DNA of 64,000 nucleotides. Source: Candidatus Nanoarchaeia archaeon. GTDB taxonomy: Archaea; Nanobdellota; Nanobdellia; Woesearchaeales; UBA525. The number at the start of each line of letters is the position of its first letter. Within the stretch, counting starts at the first letter, position 1. Location of the stretch: NCBI GenBank assembly GCA_028279755.1, contig JANQNB010000018.1, positions 134,611-198,610 on the forward strand, read 5' to 3'. Position numbers and translations under genes: made by a program. The notes beneath the pieces are model-generated. The model was given only the letters and a program-made list of their open reading frames with translations. It had not been told where the DNA came from and did not search any database. Shown here in pieces: positions 2,105 to 64,000 of this stretch.

Positions 2105-4144
2105 TTACCCGAGCCAGCTGCCCACAGCGAGGAAGACCGGCACGAAGACAAGCGCGACGATGGTCATGAGCTTGAGCAGGATGTTCAAGCTTGGCCCCGA
2201 CGTGTCCTTGAACGGGTCGCCGACCGTGTCGCCTGTCACGGCTGCTTTGTGCGCTTCGCTGCCCTTGCCGCCGTGCTTGCCAGTCTCGATGTACTTCTTC
2301 GCGTTGTCCCACGCGCCGCCGGCATTGGCCATCATCAGAGCGAGCATCACGCCGCTTGCGAGCGCGCCGGCGAGCATGCCGCCAAGCGCCTGGATGCCGA
2401 GCACGAGGCCGACCACGACTGGTGCGATCACCGCCAGGAGTCCTGGCAGGATCATCTGCTTCAGCGCGCCGGTGGTTGCGATGTCCACGCACTTTGCGTA
2501 GTCAGCTTTGGCTTTGCCTTTCATCAGGCCCTTGATCGTGCGGAACTGTCGTCGCACTTCCTCGATCATGTCAAAGGCTGCGCGGCCCACCGCTTTCATG
2601 CTCATGGCACTGAACAGGAAGGGAAGCATGCCGCCGATGAGGAGTCCGATGATGACGAGCGGTTCGGTCAGGCTGATCATCGTGAGCCCGGCTTGCTGCG
2701 CGAACGCAGTAAAGAGGGCCAAGGCCGTCAGTGCCGCGCTGCCGATAGCAAAACCCTTGCCGATAGCAGCAGTCGTGTTGCCAGCGCTGTCAAGCGCGTC
2801 AGTGCGCTTCCTGATCCGCGGACCAAGCTCTGCCATCTCTGCGATGCCGCCAGCATTGTCTGCCACAGGGCCATACGCGTCCACTGCCAGGCTGATGCCA
2901 AGCGTGCTGAGCATACCAACGGCTGCGATGGCGATGCCGTAGAGGCCGCCAGTATAGTACGCGACGCCGATAGCAGCGACGAGCACGAGGACTGGCCAGC
3001 CAGTGCTGCGCATGCCAACAGCGAGGCCTTCGATGATGTTCGTGGCTGCGCCGGTCAGGCTCGACTTGCTGATCTGCTTGGTCGGGCCGTAGTGATAGCT
3101 TGTGTAATACTCGGTCAGGAGACCGATCACCACGCCTGCGACAAGCCCGGAGAGCATGGCCCAGAACAGCGCGAGGCTGCTGAAATAATAGTTGGCCAGG
3201 AAGTAGGTGCCGATCGCGACCAGCACGCTCGCGACGATCACTCCCGAGTGCAAGGCCCAGTTGATCCGCTTGTCGTTGTTCGTGCGCACGAAGAACGTGC
3301 CGATGACGCTTGCGACAATGCCGAGGCCCGCAATCACGAGCGGGAAGAGGATGCCCTTCATGCCGAACGCGACCACGCCGAGGAGCATGGCGCTGATCAG
3401 ACTGCCCACGTAGCTCTCGAACAGGTCAGCGCCCATGCCTGCAACGTCGCCGACATTGTCGCCGACATTGTCTGCGATCGTCGCCGGATTTCTCGGATCG
3501 TCTTCCGGGATGCCTGCTTCCACCTTGCCCACAAGGTCAGCGCCGACATCAGCAGCTTTCGTGTAGATGCCACCGCCGACACGAGCGAAGAGCGCGATGG
3601 ATGATGCGCCGAAGCTGAAGCCCAGGATGAGTTCCAACGCTGCAGTGTCTGCTTCCACGCCAAAGGCGAGGAAGAGGATAAGCAAGCCGAGAAGGCCGAG
3701 GCCGACGACCGCGAGACCCATCACGCTGCCGCTCTTGAACGCGACGTTGAGCGCGCTGTTCAGATTTTTCCTCGCTGCTTGCGTCGTTCTGACAGCGGCG
3801 TGCGTGGCGATGCGCATGCCGATGTTGCCGGCGATAGCGCTTGCCAAGGCGCCGACGATGAACGCGATCGCCGTGGCTGGGAAGGGCGTGGTCGTGCCCA
3901 GGAAGACCAGGCCGGTTCGCGCGTCGACCGTGAGCCATAAAATAATGGCGACGATCAGCACGAACGCTGAGAGAATGTAGTATTCCCGTCGCAAAAAGGC
4001 CATCGCGCCTTCGCGGATATAGCCTGCGATTTCCTGCATGCGTTCAGTGCCTGCTTTCTGTTTTTTCACGTTGTTCGCCAAGAAGGCGCAATAAATCAGT
4101 CCGAGGACTGCAATCACAATCAAACCGTAGATCGTCAATATCAT
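2105..4144 (-). CDS. hppA: Membrane-bound proton-translocating inorganic pyrophosphatase.
   Basis: 679 aa and polytopic. The signature [35 protein letters not shown] is diagnostic of V-type H+-PPases. Confidence 0.92.
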
Positions 4145-20746: not shown

Positions 20747-22381
20747 ATGAAACGATTACTCTGGTGCCTCGCACTCCTGCTGTGCCCGCTTGTCGTGAGT
20801 GCGGCATTCGACAGCAGCTCGTGGCAATACATGCAAGAGATCAGCGTCGATGCTGACGAACCGGTGAAGCTCGTCCTCGATCCGAGCCTGCTGGCCAATG
20901 CGCAGCTCGACGGGCACGACCTCCGCGTGACAGAAGACGCGGTCGAGATCCCGTACAAGCTCTCGTTGGAAGGCAGTGCAGAACAGCAACGAACCATTGC
21001 GAGCATGACTGCCTCGTCGACGCGGCCGGACTTCCGTTCAGTCTCGTATGCGCCGGTCAATATGATCGATGGTGACGCATCCAATAGCGAGGGCGCGTAT
21101 TTCCAGATCGACGGCACAGTCGATACGGAAGTCTCGTGGATCGTCGCAGACCTCAGCTCTTCTGTGTTGAGTACAAAAGCCCGGTTCACGCTTGGGAGCG
21201 CGCGCTTTACGCATGTCCAAGTCCAAGGCAGCAACGACCTCGCGTCGTGGACCTTGCTGAAGCAGAAGACGAAAAGCGGCAGCCAGGTGAGCTACGCGCC
21301 GAGCAGCTTCCGCTACGTTCGCTTCACGCTCTGGCACAAGGGCGATCTCGTGATCAACGAGCTGACGATGTATGGCGAGAGCAGCGGCTGGCTCCTGTTC
21401 AACGCGCAGACCGGCAAGACCTACATGATCTATTACGGCAATGCGCAAGCAGGCGTGCCTGACTATGATCTTGAAGGATTGTATACTGTCGCGACCACGC
21501 CCTTCGTGTACACGCTCGGCGAGTGGGTGAACCCGTTGTTTGTCGGCGACGCTGATGAAGACGGCGTCGGCGTGGGCGACAATTGTCCGTCAGTCGCCAA
21601 TCCTTCGCAGCTTGACAGCGATAATGATGATCTTGGCGATGACTGCGACAATTGCCCTGGCGTGAGCAACCCTGGCCAAGGGGACCGTGATCACGACGGT
21701 GTGGGCGATGCGTGCGACAACTGCGCAGCGATGTACAATCCCAACCAGTATGACGACAACTTCAATGATATCGGCTGGGTATGCGACGACGAGGATCGCG
21801 ATGGCGTGGTGAACAGCGAAGACAATTGCGTGCCTGGCGCAAACCGTGATCAGCAGGACGTCGACCGTGACGGGGTTGGCGATGCGTGCGAGGACGACGA
21901 CGGCGACGGGGCTGCAAACTATATGGATAATTGCCCAGAGCTTGCGAACGCTGACCAGGCTGACAGCGAAACAGAGAATGGCAGGCTGGTTGGCGATGGT
22001 GTTGGCGATGCGTGCGACAATTGCGTGAACGTCAGGAATGCGGATCAGCGCGATACTGATGAAGATGGTGTCGGAGATGCCTGCGAGGACGACGACCAGG
22101 ACGACGTGCGCAATGATGCTGATAACTGCCGGCTTGTCGCGAATGCTGACCAGGTCGACTGGGACAGCGACGGCTTGGGCGATGCCTGCGACAATTGCCC
22201 GGAACATAAGAACCCGAATCAGCGCGATGTCGACAGCGACGGGCTTGGCGATGCCTGCGACGAGACTGAGAGCAGGCTGCTCGAGCAGAAGTGGATCGTC
22301 TGGAGCATCATCATCCTCGCGATACTCGTGCTCGGCTTCTTCGCCTACCGGATGTACCAGACGCCGGGAGGGAAGGAATGA
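20747..22381 (+). CDS. Secreted, membrane-anchored surface protein with an N-terminal discoidin-like domain and about 10 thrombospondin type-3 (Ca-binding) repeats.
   Basis: There is a signal peptide [19 protein letters not shown]. Repeats of the form [24 protein letters not shown] recur, and a C-terminal TM helix is present. The DNA shows matching internal repeats. Confidence 0.75.
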
Positions 22382-29076: not shown

Positions 29077-32000
29077 CTAGATCTTCAAGCTCGTGACTTT
29101 CGACACGCCGTGCTCGTTCATGCTCACGCCGAAGAGGTTGTCGGCTTCGCTGATGACTGAGTCGTTGTGGCTGATGATGATGTATTGCGCGTGGTCGCAA
29201 TACTTGCGGATGAGGCGCGCGAGCTTCTCGCTGTTATGCTTGTCCAATGCAGCGTCGACCTCGTCCATGATGTAGAAGCTTGCCGGTTCGTGCTCCTGCA
29301 CTGCGAAGAGGAAGGCGAGCGCTGTCAGGGTCTTCTCGCCGCCGCTGAGTGAGCGGATGTCGAGGAATTTCTTTCCGGTGAGCTTCACCTTGATCGTCAT
29401 GCCGGCCTGGAACGGGTCGTTGTGATCCTCCAGGTCGAGGTAGGCGTCGCCTTTCGCGCTGAGCTGGCCGAAGAAATGCTTGAAGTTCTCGTTCACGACC
29501 TCGAAGGTCTTCATGAAGAGCTCTTTCTTCTTCGCGTCGATCTCGTTGATCATGACGAGCACGTCTTCCCTTTCCGAGCCGAGCTTGTCCTTCTTCTCGA
29601 TCAGGTTCTTGTACTCGTGCTCGACCTGTTCGTAGATCTCCAGGGCTTTCATGTTGACTGCGCCGATGTTCTCGACAAGGCGTTCGAACTGGCGGACTTC
29701 CAGGAGAATATCCTCTTCTGATTTCTCTGCCTTCTTGTACGGCTCCACGCCTTCGTACTGGCGCAGCTCTTCCTCGAGTCCGGCGAGCTCTGCTTTCAGG
29801 CGCGCCACTTCGAGCGAGCTCCCGGTGTTCTTGTGCTCGATGTCGCGGGATTTCTCATCCATGCTCTTGATGTCCGCTTCCCGCTTGGTGATCTCGTCGC
29901 TGAGCTTGGTGCGTTTCGTGAACAATTCCTTAAACTGGCTGAAGAACTTCTCTTCCTGCTTCTCCTTTTCCTTGAGCGCTTTCTCCTGCTCCTTGATCTT
30001 CGCTGTGAGCGCGGCTTTCTCCTTCTTGAAGGATTCACCCTCCTTGTCGTGCTGCTTGAGGATGTCCCGCACCTTCTCGGTTTCCGGGCCGAGGATGTTC
30101 TTGACCTCGCTCTCGCTCGTGCGCAGCTCGCCATTGAGTTCAGCAATCTCCTGCTGGAGCTCTTGCTTCTTCTCCTCGAAGCTGTTCAGTTCTGCGAGCA
30201 CGGTCGGGCTTCGCAATGCCGAAATCTTGTCGCGGAGCTTCTGCTTCTCGATCTTCAGCGTGCCGAGTCCGCTCGTCTTGTCAGTGATATCGTTCACCAC
30301 CTCATCGAGCTCCTTGTCGACTTTGACGAGCTCCTGCTGCAGGCGCTTCTTCTCGTCCTGCGACAAGCCGATGTCGTCGCTGTCAAGATGCAGGCTCTTC
30401 TCGCTCTTGATGATCTCGCCTTCGAGGTTGGCTTTCAGTTCACGCAATCTCGTGATCAGCTCTTCGTTGTCTGCGCGCTTCTTCTCGAGCTTGCTGACAA
30501 TGCCTTCAGTGTCTGCCACCTCTGCCTCGAGCTTTTCGATCTTCTCGCTCGTCTCCTTCTGCTTGAAGCCGATGCCACGGCGCTCTTTGGAACGGAAACC
30601 ACCGCTCATCGCGCCGCTTGTCTCGAGCAGGTCGCCGTTGAGGGTCACCATCCGAGCCTTGCCCACACCCAAGCGGCGCGCCGCCTCGATGTTGCTCATC
30701 ACGACCGTGCTGCCGAACACGTACGAGAACACCTTTGCGTATTTCGCGTCGTGATCCACGAGCGTGGAGGCGAGGCCGATGACATCGCCGCCTTTCGCTA
30801 CCTTCGCAGGCTCTGGCGAGCGCAGCTTGTTGAGCGGGAGGAAGGTCGCGACTCCTAATTTATTCTGCCGCAGGTACTTGATGCATTTCGCCGCCACTTC
30901 GTCGGTGTCGACCACGATGCTGTTGACTCTCGGGCCAGCGGCGATTTCCAAAGCAAGAGCGTATTCTTCCTTCACCTTGCCGAGGCCTGAGACTGTGCCG
31001 TGGATGCCCTTGATTGTGCCCTTGGCCTTGAGATCGAGGATCGTGGTGATGGCAGTGCCGCCGGCGATGCGCTCCATGATGCTGCTCTGCTGCGCTTCGA
31101 GCTTGGCGAGTTCCTCTTTTCTACTCAGGAGTTTTGCTCTCGCTGTTTGCAGCTGCGCATGGAGACTGCTGTCCTCGGTGACTGCCGTGTTGAGCTCTTT
31201 TGTCGTCTTCTTGAACTGCTCTTTCTTACTCTTCAAGGCGTCGAGCTCTTTCTTGTGCTCTGCAGCGATGCCGGTCACGCGCGAAATTTTCTCGTCGATC
31301 TGCTCGAGCTGGATCTCGGCCTTGTCTTTTTCCCGAAGCAGTTCCTGCTGCTGCTCGCGCAGCTTCGCGATCTCTTCCTGCAGCTTCTCTGCCTGCTTGT
31401 CGATCTCTTCCACGCGCGAGTCGATCGCTGCCGCGTCTTCGACATGGTGCTTTTTCCTGAACTCGTTGATGCGCGTGTCGAGCTTTGCGATCGATTCTTC
31501 CCGTGTCTTGATGCGCTTCTCGACATCCTTGCGCTCGTCCTCGATAAGCTTGATCTTGTCGAACAATTCCTTGTTCGTGCGTATGAGCTCGTCCTTCCGG
31601 TCCTCGAGCTTTGCCAATTCCTGTTCGAGGCTTTCGACGCGCTGTTTGTTCACTGCGAACTCGACCTTTGCTGCTTCGATCTCTTTATGGAGCTTGACCT
31701 GTTCCTTCTCGCCGCGCTTCTCGACTTCCTGGTTGATTGCTTCGACGCCTTTCTTCCGCTCCGCGATCTCAGCCTCGAGCTTTGTGCGCCGTTCCTCGAG
31801 CTTTGTCAATTCTGCCTGGTGCTTGCCCACCTGCTGGTCGAAGCCTGCCAGCTCTTTCTCCCGCTTCTTCTTCTTGATCGTCAATAAGGTGCATTTGTTG
31901 CGCTTGATCTTCTCGTCGAGTTCCTTGAATTTGAGCGCTTGGTTTCGTTCTTTTTTCAGCTCGCGCAGGTAGGTCTTTCGTTCTGCCAGGACGATATCCG

Positions 32001-32571
32001 CCTCGTTGAGCTTGTCCTCGACACGCGTGAGCTCGCGGAGCGCCTTGTTCTTCTTTTCTTCATAGATTGAGATGCCGGCGATCTCTTCGATGATGCCTCT
32101 GCGTTCGATCGTGCTCATCTCGATCAAGTGGTTGATGTCGCCTTGCAGGATGATGTTGTACCCGTCAGGATTGATCTTGTCCCTGCTGAGCATGTCCAGG
32201 ATTTCCTGCCTGCTGGAATTCTTGCCATTGATTTTATACTTGGATTGGCCGCTCTTCTGCACGATGCGCGTGATCATGAGCTCGTCGAAATCGCCAAAGA
32301 CGCCCTTGCTGTTCTCGAAGACAATCGTGACCTCGCCGGACTTGGCTGGCTGCTTCTTCTTGCCGCCATTATAGATCAGATTGGCCGATTTCTCAGCACG
32401 GAGCCCTTTAGCCGAGCCCTTGCCCAGGACAAAGCAGAGCGCGTCCAGGACATTGCTCTTCCCGCTGCCATTCGGCCCCAGAATGCAGTTAAAGCCCTCG
32501 CCGACCATGATCTCGGTCTTGTTGGCGAAGCTCTTGAATCCCTTCATCTCAAGTCGCTTGATTCTCGTCAA
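29077..32571 (-). CDS. smc: Chromosome segregation protein SMC.
   Basis: 1164 aa. The N-terminal Walker A is FNCILGPNGSGKSNVLDALCFVLG. It also has long coiled coils, a hinge, and a C-terminal LSGGEKTLTALAFLFA signature with Walker B. Confidence 0.95.
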   Translation of the reverse strand: MTRIKRLEMKGFKSFANKTEIMVGEGFNCILGPNGSGKSNVLDALCFVLGKGSAKGLRAEKSANLIYNGGKKKQPAKSGEVTIVFENSKGVFGDFDELMITRIVQKSGQSKYKINGKNSSRQEILDMLSRDKINPDGYNIILQGDINHLIEMSTIERRGIIEEIAGISIYEEKKNKALRELTRVEDKLNEADIVLAERKTYLRELKKERNQALKFKELDEKIKRNKCTLLTIKKKKREKELAGFDQQVGKHQAELTKLEERRTKLEAEIAERKKGVEAINQEVEKRGEKEQVKLHKEIEAAKVEFAVNKQRVESLEQELAKLEDRKDELIRTNKELFDKIKLIEDERKDVEKRIKTREESIAKLDTRINEFRKKHHVEDAAAIDSRVEEIDKQAEKLQEEIAKLREQQQELLREKDKAEIQLEQIDEKISRVTGIAAEHKKELDALKSKKEQFKKTTKELNTAVTEDSSLHAQLQTARAKLLSRKEELAKLEAQQSSIMERIAGGTAITTILDLKAKGTIKGIHGTVSGLGKVKEEYALALEIAAGPRVNSIVVDTDEVAAKCIKYLRQNKLGVATFLPLNKLRSPEPAKVAKGGDVIGLASTLVDHDAKYAKVFSYVFGSTVVMSNIEAARRLGVGKARMVTLNGDLLETSGAMSGGFRSKERRGIGFKQKETSEKIEKLEAEVADTEGIVSKLEKKRADNEELITRLRELKANLEGEIIKSEKSLHLDSDDIGLSQDEKKRLQQELVKVDKELDEVVNDITDKTSGLGTLKIEKQKLRDKISALRSPTVLAELNSFEEKKQELQQEIAELNGELRTSESEVKNILGPETEKVRDILKQHDKEGESFKKEKAALTAKIKEQEKALKEKEKQEEKFFSQFKELFTKRTKLSDEITKREADIKSMDEKSRDIEHKNTGSSLEVARLKAELAGLEEELRQYEGVEPYKKAEKSEEDILLEVRQFERLVENIGAVNMKALEIYEQVEHEYKNLIEKKDKLGSEREDVLVMINEIDAKKKELFMKTFEVVNENFKHFFGQLSAKGDAYLDLEDHNDPFQAGMTIKVKLTGKKFLDIRSLSGGEKTLTALAFLFAVQEHEPASFYIMDEVDAALDKHNSEKLARLIRKYCDHAQYIIISHNDSVISEADNLFGVSMNEHGVSKVTSLKI

Positions 32572-55344: not shown

Positions 55345-56193
55345 ATGCGTCTCGCTGTTGCCATTTTGATGTGCTTACTCATCATCCCCGTAGCAGCAGC
55401 GATGCCATACGTCCCTGACTATTCGATCTTCTATGAGAAGTCGGCTGGATCACCTTTGCTTACAGAAGGTGATTATTACAACCTTTTCGTTCTGTCTATA
55501 CATCTGCCTGATGGCGGCACAGGGCCAACACGGCGCCGAGGCGCTCCAGTGACTGGCGCTGAAGTGACGCGCGAGTTCGACAAGGCAAGCCCGAAACTGC
55601 AAGAAGCTATCCTGAAAGGCGACACCTTCGCAGCAGTCAGGCTCACCATGCCAGGCAGCAGCGATATGATCCTGCACAACGTGACCTTCACGAATTACTC
55701 GTTCCACGCATCTGGCAACGACGAGGCAGGACCGCCGACAGAGACTATCACCTTGGATTTCGAGGAGATAACCTGGGGTGAGAACGTCACCAATACGACC
55801 AACACCACGAACCTGACCGCGCCTTTCACTGTGACGATCGAGCCAGACTACGCGAAGATCAAGAAAGGCGAGAACGTGAAGTACCTTGTTGTGATCGACG
55901 CTGACGAAGGATTCAACGAGCTCGTGCAGCTCGAAATGGACCTTGACATCCCACTCGGCGACCAACACTATATTATCGACACCTACGGGCCGGACTATCC
56001 GGTGCGACTGAACTACACGCTGATCGTGCCCTCGAACCTGCCGTTCGGCTTTGTCGCGCACGGCACGATCATCGGCATCAGCGAACCCTATCAAGCGACA
56101 GACGACTTCATCGTCGTGGTCGAAGGTCCGGCCATGGGCGTGGGCAAGTTCCTGAACGGGATTGACAGATTCTTTGAAGGATTGTTTGGTTGA
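55345..56193 (+). CDS. Second Hcp-family domain protein with a signal peptide and a ~130-aa Asn/Thr-rich C-terminal extension.
   Basis: After MRLAVAILMCLLIIPVAAA comes TRRRGAPVTGAEVTREFDKASPKLQEAILKGDTFAAVRLTM...HNVTFTNYSFHASGNDEAGPPTETITLDFEEITW. The extension carries NVTNTTNTTNLT sequons. It starts directly after the stop of the first Hcp-like gene. Confidence 0.7.
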   Translation: MRLAVAILMCLLIIPVAAAMPYVPDYSIFYEKSAGSPLLTEGDYYNLFVLSIHLPDGGTGPTRRRGAPVTGAEVTREFDKASPKLQEAILKGDTFAAVRLTMPGSSDMILHNVTFTNYSFHASGNDEAGPPTETITLDFEEITWGENVTNTTNTTNLTAPFTVTIEPDYAKIKKGENVKYLVVIDADEGFNELVQLEMDLDIPLGDQHYIIDTYGPDYPVRLNYTLIVPSNLPFGFVAHGTIIGISEPYQATDDFIVVVEGPAMGVGKFLNGIDRFFEGLFG

Positions 56194-57322: not shown

Positions 57323-57502
57323 TACTCATCCCCCCGTGGCAACGGGGGGTGTCGCATGAATTCTTAAGCGTTTCGACAGGAAGCTTTTTAAACGAATCAG
57401 GGTTCGCAAAGCGTACCATTTTACCTGGCAGCCAGAGCTGCGGTCCGCGTATCTAAGCCAAGGGGGCTGGACGACCCCGTCATGTTCATAGGTGATACTC
57501 AC

Positions 57503-58258
57503 ATGGGAAAAGACAAGAAGGACAAGAAAAAGAAAGAGAAGCCGAAACGGCAGATCGTGAAGAAAGCGGCGAAGCCGAAAGCCAAGAAGAAATGGTTCAG
57601 CATCGTCGCACCGAAGAGCTTCAATAACCACGTGCTCGGCGAGAGCCTGGTGGAGAACGCGGACAAGCTCGTGGGCAAGAGCATTACAGTGAATCTGATG
57701 CACCTCACGAACGACATGCGCAACCAGGGCATCGAGATCCGGTTCAAGGTCGTGAAGACCGACGAGGGCAAGGGCCTGACGTCTGTGACTGGCTACGAGG
57801 TCCTGCCAGGCCAGATGAAGCGCGTCGTGCGACGCGGGCGTTCGAAAGTCATGGACAGTTTCATTGTCCGGTGCGGCGACGTGCTCGTGCGGATCAAGCC
57901 GATCGTGTTCACCGCGAACCGCGCATCAGCAGGAGCGCAGACCACGATCAGGCTCGCAGTGCGTGAGAAGATCAAGCACCTGCTCAAAGGAACGACCTTC
58001 GACCAGCTTGTGCAGGAACTGATCCAGCACAAGCTCCAGCGAACCCTGAAGGACGTCGGGCTGAAGACGCACCCGATCAAGAGCGTCGAAGTCAAGAGCT
58101 GCGCCATTCTCAGGCAGAAGCCGAAAGAAGCGGCTGAAGAGCCTCAGGAGCCAGAACCTGCAGTTGAGAAAGCAGAGGAACCTGCGCCGGCTGAAAAACA
58201 GGAAGAAGCTGAACCTGCGAAGAAAGAAGCGGCAGAACCAGCTCCTGAAGAAAAGTAA
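57503..58258 (+). CDS. rps3ae: Ribosomal protein S3Ae (eS1) with a Lys/Glu/Pro/Ala-rich C-terminal tail.
   Basis: MGKDKKDKKKKEKPKRQIVKKAAKPKAKKKWFSIVAPKSFNN...GKSITVNLMHLTND is the canonical S3Ae N-terminus. Confidence 0.88.
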   Translation: MGKDKKDKKKKEKPKRQIVKKAAKPKAKKKWFSIVAPKSFNNHVLGESLVENADKLVGKSITVNLMHLTNDMRNQGIEIRFKVVKTDEGKGLTSVTGYEVLPGQMKRVVRRGRSKVMDSFIVRCGDVLVRIKPIVFTANRASAGAQTTIRLAVREKIKHLLKGTTFDQLVQELIQHKLQRTLKDVGLKTHPIKSVEVKSCAILRQKPKEAAEEPQEPEPAVEKAEEPAPAEKQEEAEPAKKEAAEPAPEEK

Positions 58259-58306
58259 GGAAAACCTTTTTATTCTCTCCTTCCGACCATGGTGAGAGGT
58301 GAGGAC

Positions 58307-59590
58307 ATGGGCTTTGTGCTAGACTGGCAGAAAAAACTCGGCTACAAGAAAGACCCCTTCATGCCAGAGCCTGACAAGAAGATTTCTACGTACTTTGTCG
58401 ATCGCGAGCAAGAGCGCGAGAAGCTCAACCTCTTCGTGATCAAGCAGCACCGCTTCGGCATTGTGCACGGCCCGAAAGGCGTTGGCAAAAGCACGCTTGT
58501 CGGCTGGCTGCAGGAACAGCTCGGGGTGCGCGTCCGCCGTGTCAGCTTCGCAGGCAAGGTCGTGACCAAGCCAAAAGACTTCTTCGAGCAATTCCTCCAT
58601 GAAAGCCTGAACGTGGTCGAGAAGAAAGTGACCAGGCCGCAGGAGAAACTCAAGAAGGACGAGATGGAGCCCTTTCTGCTCCAGAAGCTCAGGAAGAAAC
58701 GAGTGCTGGTCATCGTCGACGACGCGCAACTGCTCGTCAAGCAGAACAAGGATCTGCTCAAGCATTTGCTCGAGGCCTGCCCGCAGAGCCAGGTCTTGCT
58801 GGTGCTGGAACGCGTGCTGAAAGAGCACGAGCACTATGGAGCCGATCAGCTCAAGCTCGCGCTCGAAGACATGTCAGAAGCAGGGCTGGAAGCGATGCTC
58901 AAGCGGCGCATCGAGCTTGCCGGCGGCGTCGGCACCTATCCCTTCGATAAGAAGGAAATCCAGGGGCTCATCACGAAAGCGAAGAGCAATCCTGTCAAGC
59001 TGCTCGAGCTGGCACGGGAGCGCGCGATCGAGCTCAGCCTGAAAGCTGGGCCGCCGCCGAAACCAAAGCCAAAACCAAAACGGAAGCCTGTGAAGAAAGC
59101 GCCAACTCCAAAAGCATCAAAAGAAGCAGGCCCTGTACCTGAAACTGCGGAGGCAGAAGCCATCGAAGTCCATGAGGAATTGCAGGAGGAACAGCAGCGA
59201 GTCCCAGAAGCGAAGGACAAGCCGAAGAAATGGTTCTCGATCAAGTTTGTCAAGGACGATGAGGAAGAGAAAAAGGGCATCACGCTCCGGAAGGCGGACG
59301 AGCGAAGCCCGACTGAGATCCACAAAGAGCATAAGCAGAAAATGCTGAAGGCGGCACGACCGAAAGAACCGGAGAAAAAGCAGAAGGACGAGCACCACTA
59401 CCTCGACGAGGAACTGCTCTCGCCCAGCAATGAGGCGGACGCAGAGATGCTCAGCGAGATCGTCGAAGCGGCAGGCGAGGAGATAGAAGTCGAGCAGGAA
59501 GTCAAGAAGGAGAAGAAACAGCCTGAAGACGGCGTGGAAGTCGAGGACGTGATACAATCACTGGTCAAGGAAATGGATAAGAAAGGGTGA
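58307..59590 (+). CDS. P-loop AAA-type ATPase with a long low-complexity K/E/P-rich C-terminal region.
   Basis: FGIVHGPKGVGKSTLVGWL is the Walker A and RVLVIVDDAQLL is the Walker B. The tail contains PKPKPKPKRKP and is KE-rich. Confidence 0.6.
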   Translation: MGFVLDWQKKLGYKKDPFMPEPDKKISTYFVDREQEREKLNLFVIKQHRFGIVHGPKGVGKSTLVGWLQEQLGVRVRRVSFAGKVVTKPKDFFEQFLHESLNVVEKKVTRPQEKLKKDEMEPFLLQKLRKKRVLVIVDDAQLLVKQNKDLLKHLLEACPQSQVLLVLERVLKEHEHYGADQLKLALEDMSEAGLEAMLKRRIELAGGVGTYPFDKKEIQGLITKAKSNPVKLLELARERAIELSLKAGPPPKPKPKPKRKPVKKAPTPKASKEAGPVPETAEAEAIEVHEELQEEQQRVPEAKDKPKKWFSIKFVKDDEEEKKGITLRKADERSPTEIHKEHKQKMLKAARPKEPEKKQKDEHHYLDEELLSPSNEADAEMLSEIVEAAGEEIEVEQEVKKEKKQPEDGVEVEDVIQSLVKEMDKKG

Positions 59591-59594
59591 TCGC

Positions 59595-60386
59595 ATGGGA
59601 GAAATCATCATAACATACCGATCGTTGGAACGCGTGGCATACTGGATCGCCATTGTCGTACTGCTCGTGCTCCTGATCATGAGCTATGTCGGCGACAAGA
59701 ATTGCGACGACGCCGAAGAGATTACCGCTGAGACTGATGACGACGTCGAAGCTGGCAGCGACGCAGGCGAAGACGACGAGACGCCGCCGGTCGTAGAAGA
59801 TGACCCTCCAGAACCTGATGAGACCTGCACCGACGGAATCGAGAACCAGGACGAGACTGACGTCGACTGCGGCGGCAGCACCTGCGACCCCTGCGCTGAA
59901 GGCAAGGACTGCTCCTTGAATCGCGACTGCGAAGAAGGCGAGTGCAAGAGCGGCGAGTGCGATGCAACGCCAGACCTGAGCGGCGACGTCACTGTCGAGA
60001 TCGTGGGCACGCCGCAATACACTGCGAACGAGGACACGAACGTTGCCAAGCTCACAGAGCTCAAGGTGAAGATCGAGAACGGTGAGGACAGCATGTTCAG
60101 AGGCACCCTTGAGATGTGGGTGAAATCGCCGAACGAGCTGTATTACCTCAACCAGCCGATGGGTGACGAAGGCGAAGGGTCCAACCCCTATGCTGAGATG
60201 AGCATCTCATCCATCGCGAGCGGCGCCAGCCTGAGCAAGACCTACACTGACGACAACTTCGACCAGGGCTACCTGTTCAGTCTCACCGGCGACTACGTCG
60301 GCGGCGATGACTTCTGGATCGAGGTCGTGTTATACGACAACGACCATTCCCTGGTGGACGTGGCCAAGAAGAAAGTGACGGTCTAA
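59595..60386 (+). CDS. Membrane-anchored secreted protein with an acidic linker and a Cys-rich module.
   Basis: It has an N-terminal TM segment IAIVVLLVLLIM, an Asp/Glu-rich stretch, and CTDGIENQDETDVDCGGSTCDPCAEGKDCSLNRDCEEGECKSGECD. Confidence 0.5.
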   Translation: MGEIIITYRSLERVAYWIAIVVLLVLLIMSYVGDKNCDDAEEITAETDDDVEAGSDAGEDDETPPVVEDDPPEPDETCTDGIENQDETDVDCGGSTCDPCAEGKDCSLNRDCEEGECKSGECDATPDLSGDVTVEIVGTPQYTANEDTNVAKLTELKVKIENGEDSMFRGTLEMWVKSPNELYYLNQPMGDEGEGSNPYAEMSISSIASGASLSKTYTDDNFDQGYLFSLTGDYVGGDDFWIEVVLYDNDHSLVDVAKKKVTV

Positions 60387-60434
60387 GCAAAACATTTTTA
60401 AATCCCTTTCCCTATTTTTCTTATTGCGACAAAG

Positions 60435-60935
60435 GTGGTAGACATCCAGCGAACCGTACTATACGGACTACTATTCCTGCTCATAGCAGGCAGTGCGACT
60501 GCCGCGGGCGTGTGGATCAGCGCGAGCCCGCCAGAAGCGCGTCTGAACGACATAGCGTATTACCATTACCAGGCTGGCGAATACGAGGCTGCAGAAACCA
60601 GCTATCTCGAAGCCCTGACAGAGAATCCTGACTATGAGACTGCCCGGTACAATCTCGCGATATTGTATTTCAGGCAAGGATTGTATGAACAGGCTATTCC
60701 GCAGTTTGAGCGCTTGCTGGAACAAAACGGGAACAATCCGAGCTATCACTTCGATTACGCAGTGACGATCGTCGAGCAGATGCGCGAAACAGGCTATTGG
60801 GACCGTGAGGTGCTGGAACGCGCCATCTACCATTACGAAACCGCGGAGCGCTTGCAACCAGGCTTTCCCCACGCTGCGGAGAACGCCGTCTTTCTCCAGA
60901 AACCCTTGGCTGATCTTGAAAGCATAGGTATATAA
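60435..60935 (+). CDS. Secreted TPR-repeat protein, first member of a tandem paralog pair.
   Basis: It has a signal peptide followed by YEAAETSYLEALTENPDYETARYNLAILYFRQGLYEQA. The C-terminus ends PGFPHAAENAVFL. Confidence 0.6.
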   Translation: MVDIQRTVLYGLLFLLIAGSATAAGVWISASPPEARLNDIAYYHYQAGEYEAAETSYLEALTENPDYETARYNLAILYFRQGLYEQAIPQFERLLEQNGNNPSYHFDYAVTIVEQMRETGYWDREVLERAIYHYETAERLQPGFPHAAENAVFLQKPLADLESIGI

Positions 60936-60969
60936 ATCTGGATTCGTCCCTTTTCATGGGGGTGAGTCA

Positions 60970-61452
60970 ATGAAACGACTCTTACTGACAGTCATCGTTC
61001 TCTTGGTCCTAATCGGCAGTGTCAGCGCATATACAGTGCTTGTTCAGGAAGACCTGACACCAGTTGAATTGAACAATATCGCGTACTACGCCTACCATGA
61101 TGGCGATTACGCAGCTGCGGAAGCGGCGTATCTTGCTGCACTGGCTTTGGATCCGTCATATGAGAAAGCGCGCTACAACCTCGCGCTGCTCTTGTTCGAA
61201 CTCGAACGATACGAAGAGGCGCATCCCCATTTTGCGCAGACGCTCGCACTCGCGCCAGGGAATGCAGGCTATCACTTCGACTATGCTGCTAATTATGTCG
61301 CCTGGTTCCGCCAGCTTGATCGGGCAAGCGCAGCAGACTTTGACCATGCGATTGCTGAGTATGATCTTGTGGAGCAATTATCACCCGGCTTTCCGCATGC
61401 AGCTGAGAACGCTGCAGTCTTGCGCGCGATCAAGGCAGAATTCTTCGGATAA
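60970..61452 (+). CDS. Secreted TPR-repeat protein, second member of the tandem paralog pair.
   Basis: YAAAEAAYLAALALDPSYEKARYNLALLLFELERYEEA ... PGFPHAAENAAVL is paralogous to 60435..60935. Confidence 0.6.
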   Translation: MKRLLLTVIVLLVLIGSVSAYTVLVQEDLTPVELNNIAYYAYHDGDYAAAEAAYLAALALDPSYEKARYNLALLLFELERYEEAHPHFAQTLALAPGNAGYHFDYAANYVAWFRQLDRASAADFDHAIAEYDLVEQLSPGFPHAAENAAVLRAIKAEFFG

Positions 61453-61484: not shown

Positions 61485-61742
61485 ATGCCAGATTATGATT
61501 TGTCGGTCGACGAGATCGTCGCCACGATCAGGAAAGAGAAGGCAAAACGAGTCCTGATACAACTACCTGATGGACTGAAGCCAGAAGCTGCTGCGTTGCA
61601 GAAAGCTGTGCTGTCTGCATTGCCTGACACTGAACTCTTTTTCTGGGGAGGCAGCGCATATGGTGCGTGCGACGTACCACTGGATGTTGACAAACTCGGT
61701 TTCGATTTGTTACTGCACCTGGGTCATGCGCAGTGGCGCTGA
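61485..61742 (+). pseudogene. dph2: Truncated diphthamide biosynthesis gene dph2: only the N-terminal ~85 codons are present.
   Basis: MPDYDLSVDEIVATIRKEKAKRVLIQLPDGLKPEAAALQ...FFWGGSAYGACDVPLDVDKLGFDLLLHLGHAQWR* aligns with the first ~85 residues of archaeal Dph2 (..AKRVLIQ.PEGL.....YGACD......GCDALIHLGHS..). It is then terminated and followed directly by the promoter of the K/R-repeat gene. No downstream continuation exists in any frame. Confidence 0.6.
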
Positions 61743-61843
61743 AACATCTGTTTTCTCGGGAAATACGTCGTAAAAAAGTAAACTTTAAATAAGGTTATTG
61801 CCGGGATACGAACTTAGGTAATGATTTATTTGAGGTGAACACC

Positions 61844-62485
61844 ATGGTGGCACGAAAGCGTAAGGTCGTCCGTAAGACGAAGCGCAAACCTGCCAAACGC
61901 AAGACAAAGAAGCGTGTTGTCAAGCGGAAGGTAGCCAAGCGCAAGACCGTCAAGCGGAAGACTCGCAAGAAGGCTGCGAAGAAACCGGTGAAGCGCAAGC
62001 GACGAGTCGTGAAGAAAAAGGCAGTGAAGAAGAAACCTGTCAAGCGACGGAAGCGACGAGTCGTGAAGAAGAAGGCTGCGAAGAAACCGGCGAAGCGCAG
62101 GAAGCGACGCGTTGTTAAGAAGAAAGCGGCGAAGAAGAAGCCGGTTCGACGGAAGCGACGAGTCGTGAAGAAGAAGACTGCGAAGAAGCGAACGGTGAAG
62201 CGCCGAAAGGTCGCGAAGAAGAAACCGGTCAAGCGCAGGAAGCGACGCGTTGTTAAGAAGAAAGCGGCGAAGAAGAAGCCGGTTCGACGGAAGCGACGAG
62301 TCGTGAAGAAGAAGACTGCGAAGAAACCGGCGAAGCGCAGGAAGCGACGCGTTGTCAAGAAAAAGGCGACGAAAAAGCGGACGGTGAAGCGGAAGGCGAA
62401 GCGAAAGGTTGCCAAGAAGAAACCTGTGCGACGCAAGAAGCGAGTCGTGAAGAAAAAACCGGTGCGACGCAGACGACGCAGATAA
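61844..62485 (+). CDS. Highly basic K/R-rich tandem-repeat protein, a possible DNA-binding or chromatin protein.
   Basis: 213 aa made of about 10 repeats of roughly KRRKRRVVKKKAAKKKPV, with a DNA period of about 60 nt. A TATA TTTAAATAAGG lies about 45 nt upstream and GAGGTGA lies 7 nt before the ATG at 61844. The mirror ORF on the minus strand (61795..62436) is rejected. Confidence 0.65.
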   Translation: MVARKRKVVRKTKRKPAKRKTKKRVVKRKVAKRKTVKRKTRKKAAKKPVKRKRRVVKKKAVKKKPVKRRKRRVVKKKAAKKPAKRRKRRVVKKKAAKKKPVRRKRRVVKKKTAKKRTVKRRKVAKKKPVKRRKRRVVKKKAAKKKPVRRKRRVVKKKTAKKPAKRRKRRVVKKKATKKRTVKRKAKRKVAKKKPVRRKKRVVKKKPVRRRRRR

Positions 62486-62490
62486 ACTTT

Positions 62491-64000
62491 TTACTTTTTA
62501 TCCTTACTTTTATGATTCCCATTCGCAGGCTCAGTATGCCTGCATTTCGGGAATCCTGAACAGCCCCAGAACGCGCCATACACGCTCTTGCGCAAGACGA
62601 GTTTCTTCTCGCATTTCGGACAGATCTTGCACGTGCCTTCCGCGTCAGCCTCTTGCTGCGCATCCTTCTCTTCCTTGAGCTTCTGCGGGCATTCGTTATT
62701 GATGCACACGAGCTGCTTCCGTCTCCCGGAACCGATCATGATCATCGGCGCCTGGCAGTGCTCGCACTGCTTGTCTGTCGGCTGGATCATGCCCTTCTGC
62801 GGCAGCGGGTATGTCTGGTCACAATCAGGATACCGGTCGCAGCCGCAGAACCGTTTTCTTGTCTTCTTGGAGAACGTGACTTTGATCGTGCCCTGCTTGC
62901 ATTTGATGCACGGCCCGAGCGTGTTCATCATGTCCTGCTCTTCGCGATAGGCCGCTATGAGTTCCTCGCCGACCTCCTTCTCGTTCTTCTTGAACTTTGC
63001 GAGCAGCTTGTCCAATTCCTTCTTGGCAGTATTGAGGATCTGTTCGCCGTTCTTTTTCTGCGCCTGGATCTCTTCCATCTCTTCCTCGAACTGCCGTGTC
63101 AGCGCCTCGTCGATGATCTCTGGGCTGTGTTTCTCGAGAATCTTGACCATCTCCATGCCGAGCTCAGTGCCTTCGATGTTTGCGTCGCCCTTGACATAGT
63201 TGCGCTTGAACAAGGCCTCGACAACGTCGGCGCGTGTCGCTTTCGTACCGAGGTTGCGCTTCTCGAGCTCGTTGATGATGGACGATTGCGTGTACCGCTT
63301 CGGTGGCTGCGTCTCTTTCTCGTGCAGGTCGAGCTTTGTGATCGGGAGAGATTCGTTCTCCTGGAGTTTCGGCAATTCCTCTTCCTTGAGGTTCACGTAC
63401 GGCGCGTAGTAGAGGTGCCAGCCTGGCGCTGTTGTCCTGGTGCCTTTCGCGACGAACGGTTCGGTGTTTGCATCCAGGTGTGCGGTCACTGTTTCCCTTG
63501 TCGCTGGCTCTGCGAACGTTGCCAGGAAACGCTTGACAATGAGATCGTAGATCTTCAGGTCCCAATCCTTGCCTTTGACTGGTTGTCCTGTGGGGTGGAT
63601 GGCTGGATGCGCCGGATCCGATTTCTTGCCCTCGTTGGGTTTGAGCGTCTTCAGTTTCAGGATGTCGCCAGCGAGGCTTGCGTAGTCCTTGTTCTTTGAG
63701 AGTGCGGTGAGTATCTTCTTGTAGCCCAGCTTTGCCGGCAGTTTCTGGCTGCTGGTGCGCGGATAGCTGATGCTGCCGTCAGTATAGAGCTTCTGCGCGA
63801 CTTCAAGCGTCTGTTTCGGCTTGATCTTGAAGCAGCGATACGCTTCTGTTTGTAGCGAACCGAGATCGAACGGGTGCGGTGGCTGTTGCTTGAAAGATTT
63901 CGCATCGACCTTTTTGACTGTGGCGTCTTTCGCTTCCTTTGCCTTGCCAAACGCGGTCTTGGCTTCGTCTTCTTTCCAGAACTTGTCTGTTGCGTGCCAG
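62491..64000 (-). CDS. topA: DNA topoisomerase I (type IA), C-terminal ~500 aa including zinc-ribbon repeats. The N-terminus runs off the window end.
   Basis: The minus frame is open from 64000. It contains the ...TDGSISYPRTSSQKLP.. topoisomerase core, then multiple CxxC...CxxC zinc ribbons (CIKCKQG..CGCDRYPDC; CEHCQAPM..CINNEC; CKICPKCEKK..CSGFPKC). Confidence 0.8.
   Translation of the reverse strand, partial: WHATDKFWKEDEAKTAFGKAKEAKDATVKKVDAKSFKQQPPHPFDLGSLQTEAYRCFKIKPKQTLEVAQKLYTDGSISYPRTSSQKLPAKLGYKKILTALSKNKDYASLAGDILKLKTLKPNEGKKSDPAHPAIHPTGQPVKGKDWDLKIYDLIVKRFLATFAEPATRETVTAHLDANTEPFVAKGTRTTAPGWHLYYAPYVNLKEEELPKLQENESLPITKLDLHEKETQPPKRYTQSSIINELEKRNLGTKATRADVVEALFKRNYVKGDANIEGTELGMEMVKILEKHSPEIIDEALTRQFEEEMEEIQAQKKNGEQILNTAKKELDKLLAKFKKNEKEVGEELIAAYREEQDMMNTLGPCIKCKQGTIKVTFSKKTRKRFCGCDRYPDCDQTYPLPQKGMIQPTDKQCEHCQAPMIMIGSGRRKQLVCINNECPQKLKEEKDAQQEADAEGTCKICPKCEKKLVLRKSVYGAFWGCSGFPKCRHTEPANGNHKSKDKK

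Follow-up and report, generated by a model that had tools for sequence, protein, structure and literature searches.

An 85-codon dph2 gene in a Woesearchaeota-type genome: very probably the N-terminal half of an anciently split Dph2, next to an independent polycationic repeat gene

Archaeal Dph2 is the radical-SAM-type [4Fe-4S] enzyme with which the synthesis of diphthamide on EF-2 begins. The locus described here raises the question of how to read a dph2 frame that ends after 85 codons and is followed by a gene for a repetitive protein made largely of lysine and arginine (the K/R gene). The original prediction saw in this arrangement an insertion or replacement that had inactivated diphthamide synthesis, and offered a genuinely split gene as the alternative. 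Comparison of the window (the whole 64-kb stretch of DNA that was analysed) with its relatives favours the alternative: the 85-codon ORF is very probably the complete and functional N-terminal gene of an anciently split DPANN Dph2, and the K/R gene an independent neighbour. The first two features are the following.

61485..61742, plus strand: dph2-N, the 85-aa N-terminal-domain gene (85 codons plus stop), with matches to PF01866 and TIGR00322
61455..61463, plus strand: TATA-like element CTTATTAAT, read from the sequence, about 22-30 nt upstream of the dph2-N ATG

The product of dph2-N ends in ...LHLGHAQWR* (the translation closes with DLLLHLGHAQWR*). It covers profile positions 1-56 of 302 in PF01866 (Diphthamide_syn; E 1.1e-8, 35.3 bits against a gathering cut-off of 33.2 bits) and positions 1-81 of 320 in TIGR00322 (E 6.7e-19, 68.4 bits against a cut-off of 35); with 53.7 bits it stays below the 202.8-bit cut-off of the equivalog TIGR03682 because only about 63 of the 308 positions are covered. 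The protein aligns with residues 5-81 of Pyrococcus horikoshii Dph2 (PhDph2; the query was checked and is identical to 3LZC) at 40% identity, its C-terminal end falling at about residue 83, and also aligns with the M. smithii (6Q2D) and Ca. Methanoperedens (6BXM) enzymes. The prediction that the frame is Dph2-like up to ...LHLGHA and then stops was accurate, the match extending over the first 83 or so residues. What is absent is the three-domain architecture in a single polypeptide of about 310-340 aa, since the 85 aa correspond to PhDph2 residues of about 5-83 only. An AF2 model of the protein (pLDDT 80.5) displays an alternating helix-strand (alpha/beta) pattern, and the best 15 Foldseek matches to this model in the PDB are all Dph2 (TM 0.68-0.79, rmsd 1.5-2.8 A). 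The predicted fold is that of the N-terminal part of the Dph2 crystal structures; compared with the full-length archaeal enzymes (3LZC/3LZD, 6Q2D, 6BXM), on whose N-terminal part it superposes, the window protein represents one domain of three. The element CTTATTAAT probably serves as the dph2-N promoter, which would make the transcript leaderless or nearly so, and a similar TTTAAAT box lies about 27 nt 5' of the dph2-N ATG in the related locus L002.

One of the residues retained by the short protein belongs to the catalytic site. Cys62 (codon 61668-61670) aligns with PhDph2 Cys59 and, as stated in a passage of PMC7575589 that cites 3LZD, the PhDph2 cysteines C59, C163 and C287, one per domain, ligate the [4Fe-4S] cluster. 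The equivalent of C59 is present and invariant, while equivalents of C163 and C287 are absent from the 64-kb window. With Cys163 and Cys287 necessarily supplied by a second polypeptide, the enzyme would work as a hetero-oligomer and not as a homodimer.

The window protein is a member of a large family with the same extent. A database search with the 85-aa sequence returned at least 132 homologue clusters, the best 120 of which span 78-126 aa, with most at 84-88 aa, and share 40-79% identity with the window protein; those with names among these 120 belong to Woesearchaeota or Nanoarchaeota. Eleven columns are invariant in the alignment of 120 homologues (Q26, L27, P28, D29, G30, K32, G60, C62, D63, G80 and H81), making up the motifs QLPDG.K, G.CD and GH and including the Fe-S ligand Cys62. 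A scan of the GTDB species representatives yielded at least 584 stretches encoding dph2-N relatives; the best 80 are all DPANN loci, and the closest lie in records titled Candidatus Woesearchaeota, Nanoarchaeota or Pacearchaeota. Many GTDB-representative MAGs with a Woesearchaeota-type dph2-N (L007, L012, L014, L025 and others; 'binchicken', SRP co-assemblies) are titled 'uncultured Methanosarcinales archaeon', and these titles look like placeholder or wrong organism names.

The complementary part of Dph2 exists as a family of its own. In locus L054 a gap of 109 nt separates an N-terminal gene of 84 aa from a downstream ORF of 225 aa, and this second ORF corresponds to PhDph2 residues 97-309. 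Adjacent, separate N- and C-terminal Dph2 ORFs are also seen in L088 (4-nt overlap) and L090 (11-nt gap), placing the two-ORF arrangement in three lineages. With the L054 C-terminal ORF as the query 618 C-terminal-only clusters were recovered, and a C-terminal profile search at E <= 1e-10 gave 3143 clusters. The C-terminal-only proteins among the matches listed are all 208-257 aa long and come from Woesearchaeota, Nanoarchaeota and Diapherotrites; 107 of the 120 listed start at PhDph2 residue 88. C-terminal proteins that start at residue 88 and N-terminal proteins that end at about residue 83 indicate a clean fission at a fixed position. The conserved GQxLGC and NTACPR motifs of the C-terminal family hold the counterparts of PhDph2 Cys163 and Cys287. 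No C-terminal gene lies within 10 kb of dph2-N in the 85 other loci (L001-L086 apart from L054), from which it follows that the two halves of Dph2 are usually unlinked. A Peptidase_U32 gene adjoins the Dph2 C-terminal gene in two unrelated lineages (L087, 10654-11844; L090, 1-610), with an overlap of 4 nt between them in L087.

Where, then, is the partner of the window gene? The C-terminal stretch of about 250 aa, which the original prediction had missed downstream of the stop, turned out to be absent from the entire 64-kb window: neither tblastn with PhDph2, nor tblastn with the C-terminal DPANN protein of L054, nor hmmsearch --max of all six-frame ORFs with a profile built from 120 C-terminal proteins gave a C-terminal Dph2 match. 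Recoding or read-through of the dph2-N stop was rejected as well, there being no Dph2-like sequence downstream in any frame. Any C-terminal partner is accordingly unlinked to dph2-N, at a distance above 2.2 kb in one direction and above 61 kb in the other, and the partner gene of the window genome is expected outside the 64-kb window. Among the best 120 matches of either database search, no C-terminal protein comes from the 375,498-bp source contig or from the 1.84-Mb chromosome of a Woesearchaeota relative. None of the first 120 listed C-terminal proteins has the GC-rich amino-acid composition expected for the window's clade; a partner from this clade is thus unseen among those listed. Pairing of N- and C-terminal proteins by proximity of their NCBI accessions gave no pair from the same MAG. 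The notion that L087 and L058 (132,649 and 132,627 bp) are one contig was discarded, given their GC of 0.29 and about 0.41 (the latter taken from the isolate name '41_17') and the lack of any blastn overlap.

These negative results bear on a rival explanation, in which the C-terminal gene has been lost, the 85-aa protein has taken on a different function, such as that of an Fe-S or EF-2-binding accessory, and the organism lacks diphthamide. It would account for the failure to find a partner for the window genome or for any member of its GC-rich clade in the regions and listed matches searched, and other archaea are known to have lost dph genes (PMC6143161). However, the partner search covered 64 kb of the window genome, 10 kb on either side of the relatives' loci and the best 120 of the 3143 C-terminal clusters, and the clade retains precisely those residues, the Fe-S cysteine included, that are invariant in lineages that demonstrably possess the partner. 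An N-terminal domain that works alone is therefore an unlikely reading.

Split Dph1/2 is not new to these organisms. It has been published for Woesearchaeota and other DPANN (Narrowe et al. 2018, PMC6143161), Parvarchaeota, Pacearchaeota, Woesearchaeota and Altiarchaeota have been named as its carriers (Dombrowski et al. 2019, PMC6349945), and a split Dph2 was described in the nanoarchaeote Nst1 (Podar et al. 2013, PMC3655853). The window dph2-N is one more instance of this published arrangement of separate NTD and CTD genes. Here, too, a Woesearchaeota-type genome carries a stand-alone N-terminal gene of about 85 aa, its break point is the one seen in hundreds of relatives, and the same phyla contain a family of C-terminal-only proteins to match; nothing essential differs, and the break point at PhDph2 residues 84-88 is not described in those papers. 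The prediction's alternative of a genuinely split gene is in this way upheld by the N-only and C-only families, by the adjacent pairs and by the earlier literature.

The course of events in the split-gene reading may be sketched as follows. Dph2 would have undergone an ancient fission at about PhDph2 residue 84-88, in the window's Woesearchaeota lineage as in many DPANN, leaving two genes, an N-terminal one for about 85 aa and a C-terminal one for about 220-240 aa. The small and the large polypeptide would associate and rebuild the three-domain protomer. The cluster would be ligated jointly by Cys62 from the small subunit and by the cysteines in the GQxLGC and NTACPR motifs of the large one, and this shared cluster would then cleave SAM, yielding the 3-amino-3-carboxypropyl radical. 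Nothing was interrupted by the K/R gene, which has its own TATA box and Shine-Dalgarno (SD) sequence and is convergent with topA; the length of its protein changes through tandem duplication of units of 45-51 nt. The eukaryotic Dph1-Dph2 heterodimer likewise consists of two different polypeptides of the PF01866 family; however, it is built from two full-length paralogues that go back to a duplication, whereas here the parts are complementary fragments of one protein that go back to a fission.

The position of the stop and the pattern of substitution in dph2-N speak to the reading put forward by the original prediction, namely a recent truncation or pseudogenisation in which insertion of the K/R gene, or replacement by it, removed about 250 C-terminal codons and inactivated diphthamide synthesis. 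This scenario agrees with the lack of C-terminal Dph2 sequence, both downstream and elsewhere in the window, and with the repetitive, 'foreign' appearance of the K/R gene. Against it, the stop falls within a few codons of the GH[AS]xW motif in 86 of the 86 loci examined (GC 23-68%, 44-79% identity), and the end point is the same throughout these loci and in about 120 clusters whichever gene lies downstream. The close clade of the window has the K/R gene in that place, the 1.84-Mb Woesearchaeota chromosome has a gene of the DHH family, and other unrelated ORFs are found there elsewhere. The catalytic-site residues are invariant, and pN (0.19-0.32 against ten relatives) is far below pS (0.71-0.92, synonymous sites being saturated), with a dN/dS of about 0.1 where it could be computed. 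Judged by these substitutions, dph2-N is under strong purifying selection and is no pseudogene. The K/R gene, for its part, occupies the same position in relatives, in some of them with only 37 aa. Inactivation of dph2 by the K/R gene consequently has next to nothing left in its favour.

A false stop, a frameshift or a chimeric join within the repeat can be dismissed almost entirely: short-read contigs do break in the K/R repeat, where L007 also carries a run of N, yet an independent Logan assembly of the same sequencing run (SRR20820740; L001) encodes the 85-aa protein exactly as in the window and shows 100% identity in the K/R gene over its first 261 nt, and the order dph2-N, K/R gene, topA is fully assembled in L008, L010 and L011. 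The recurrence of the same 85-aa protein in L001 means that the dph2-N stop codon is no assembly error. The contig of L001 then ends inside the repeat and, as short-read contigs of the window genome and its relatives break or carry N runs there, the repeat copy number in the window is to be taken with caution.

With dph2-N very probably a complete gene, the K/R gene can be considered in its own right. It starts after a spacer of 101 nt, and the predicted TATA box, GAGGTGA sequence and 213-aa repeat protein 3' of the stop were all found at the positions given below, along with the neighbouring topA and the counterparts in relatives.

61783..61791, plus strand: TATA box CTTTAAATA of the K/R gene; six related loci share CTTTAWATA and the adjoining bases without change
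61832..61838, plus strand: Shine-Dalgarno-like GAGGTGA, 5 nt before the K/R ATG; conserved in five of six related loci
61844..62485, plus strand: K/R-repeat protein gene, 213 aa, 26 kDa; ATG at 61844, stop at 62483-62485
61967..62403, plus strand: tandem-repeat core of the K/R gene, with a 51-nt (17-aa) unit by TRF
62491..64000, minus strand: 3' part of topA (DNA topoisomerase I, C-terminal zinc-ribbon region); the ORF runs off the end of the window
L008 6519-7133, L010 4322-4435, L011 4723-4836, L009 3217-3324: K/R-type polycationic ORFs in relatives
L023 12240-12461, L027 12431-12838: K/A-rich versions of about 70-125 aa in distant loci

The protein contains 86 K, 52 R, 35 V, 20 A, 10 P and 9 T, no D, E, G or S at all, and K and R together make up 64.8% of its residues. 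Tandem repeats had been predicted correctly, although their unit is 17 aa and not about 18 aa; TRF also detected higher-order periods of 102, 138 and 189 nt. Comparison of repeat copies 189 nt apart, without gaps, shows 12, 4 and 25 differences in codon positions 1, 2 and 3, respectively, corresponding to 24 synonymous and 9 non-synonymous codon changes. Orthologues sit in the same position in L002/L003, L007, L008 (204 aa), L010 (37 aa), L011 (37 aa) and L009 (31-35 aa), and all of these positional orthologues start with M[VA]AKK. Wherever a contig includes both, the K/R-family ORF is convergent with the 3' end of topA; the window topA is matched at 62539-63999 by tblastn with the 804-aa topA product of L010. 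In the wider set, 15 of the 80 GTDB-representative loci (L007-L086) have topA no more than 10 kb from dph2-N, as does the window, in both relative orientations.

On these sequence features the K/R gene is a real, independent and conserved gene, and the composition of its product suggests that it probably binds or condenses nucleic acid non-specifically in the manner of H1 tails or protamines. In its extreme K/R content the protein resembles the C-terminal tails of histone H1, protamines, Chlamydia Hc2 (PF07382), AlgP and the mycobacterial HupB tail, and it shares with them the short K/R/A/P/V repeats, the lack of acidic residues and a length that varies with the number of repeats. Unlike them, it gives no significant model match, has no globular domain and is arginine-rich with VV dipeptides. 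The likeness is probably compositional and convergent. Searches of Pfam and NCBIfam with the window K/R protein gave no match at E <= 1, and it matches none of the curated H1-type models (HC2 PF07382, Hc1, linker histone, NCBIfam H1-like); for its relatives the best curated-model match is HC2 (PF07382) at E 0.7-0.9, with 10 bits against a 40-bit cut-off. The sole phmmer match among 1.84 billion representatives, P0245, is evidently compositional, and a search of the Woesearchaeota and DPANN literature for H1-like or lysine-rich proteins found nothing relevant.

Some doubt attaches to a role in the nucleoid, and it is possible, if not the favoured option, that the ORF encodes an RNA- or ribosome-associated polycation or is a spurious frame in a simple repeat. 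The absence of a family match would suit either version; small and very basic proteins are typical of ribosomes, and K/R-coding repeats leave several frames open, with a 213-aa ORF on the opposite strand as well. A spurious frame is difficult to reconcile with a TATA box, SD sequence, ATG and M[VA]AKK start that are conserved across related loci (the SD sequence in five of six) or with repeat divergence that is biased to the third codon position, and a length range of 31-213 aa would be hard to fit with a fixed ribosomal site. The 37-aa versions were considered as ribosomal protein eL41, which is similar in length; this was rejected because there is no Pfam match, expansion beyond 200 aa does not fit, and the sequence pattern is presumably dissimilar. 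The K/R protein is not a detached basic C-terminal tail of TopA either, as it is encoded on the opposite strand with its own promoter.

A nucleic acid-binding K/R protein could be a protamine/H1-like or topoisomerase-modulating factor, with repeat expansion as a fast evolutionary route to a different dose of positive charge. A tentative and more far-reaching view joins two proposals: that an undescribed polycationic family of Woesearchaeota (M[VA]AKK start, 31-213 aa, conserved promoter, usually convergent with topA) condenses the nucleoid or modulates topoisomerase and, separately, that the GC-rich clade has lost its Dph2 C-terminal gene and uses the N-terminal domain in a new role. The polycationic neighbour is in any case a small unexplained item of possible interest for archaeal chromatin.

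For genome annotation the preferred reading, a complete N-terminal gene of a split Dph2, has practical consequences. An 85-aa Dph2 match in a DPANN genome should be recorded neither as a pseudogene nor as a sign that diphthamide has been lost, and should not serve naively as a single-copy marker, and a warning against marker-gene use was already given by Narrowe et al. (2018, PMC6143161). The present comparison adds precision by placing the fission point at PhDph2 84-88 and one of the three cluster-ligating cysteines on the small subunit, and by distinguishing some lineages that hold the Dph2 halves as a translationally coupled operon from most, in which they are unlinked.

The remainder of the window provides several further observations. 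Upstream of dph2-N lies a conserved block of genes.

57482..61452, plus strand: S3Ae, AAA_22/ORC-like ATPase, 263-aa protein and two TPR proteins (Pfam)

The order of this block is also found in L002-L004, but with one TPR gene there compared with two in the window. Its ATPase (58289-59590, plus strand) has a long disordered tail, first K/P-rich and then E/K-rich, and the Cys/Asp-rich 263-aa protein (59595-60386, plus strand), which has no family match, is conserved together with the ATPase in L002-L004. Further upstream a 282-aa ORF (55345-56193, plus strand) matches Pfam T6SS_HCP (Hcp) over residues 62-144 with E 2e-8, which is unexpected in a DPANN archaeon. The window additionally encodes a thrombospondin type-3 repeat protein (20747-22381, plus strand), SMC (29077-32547, minus strand) and an H+-pyrophosphatase (2105-4144, minus strand), the three sets of coordinates being given in the order in which the proteins are listed. 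The GC content of the window is 53.6%, which is high in comparison with the median of 39% for related loci.
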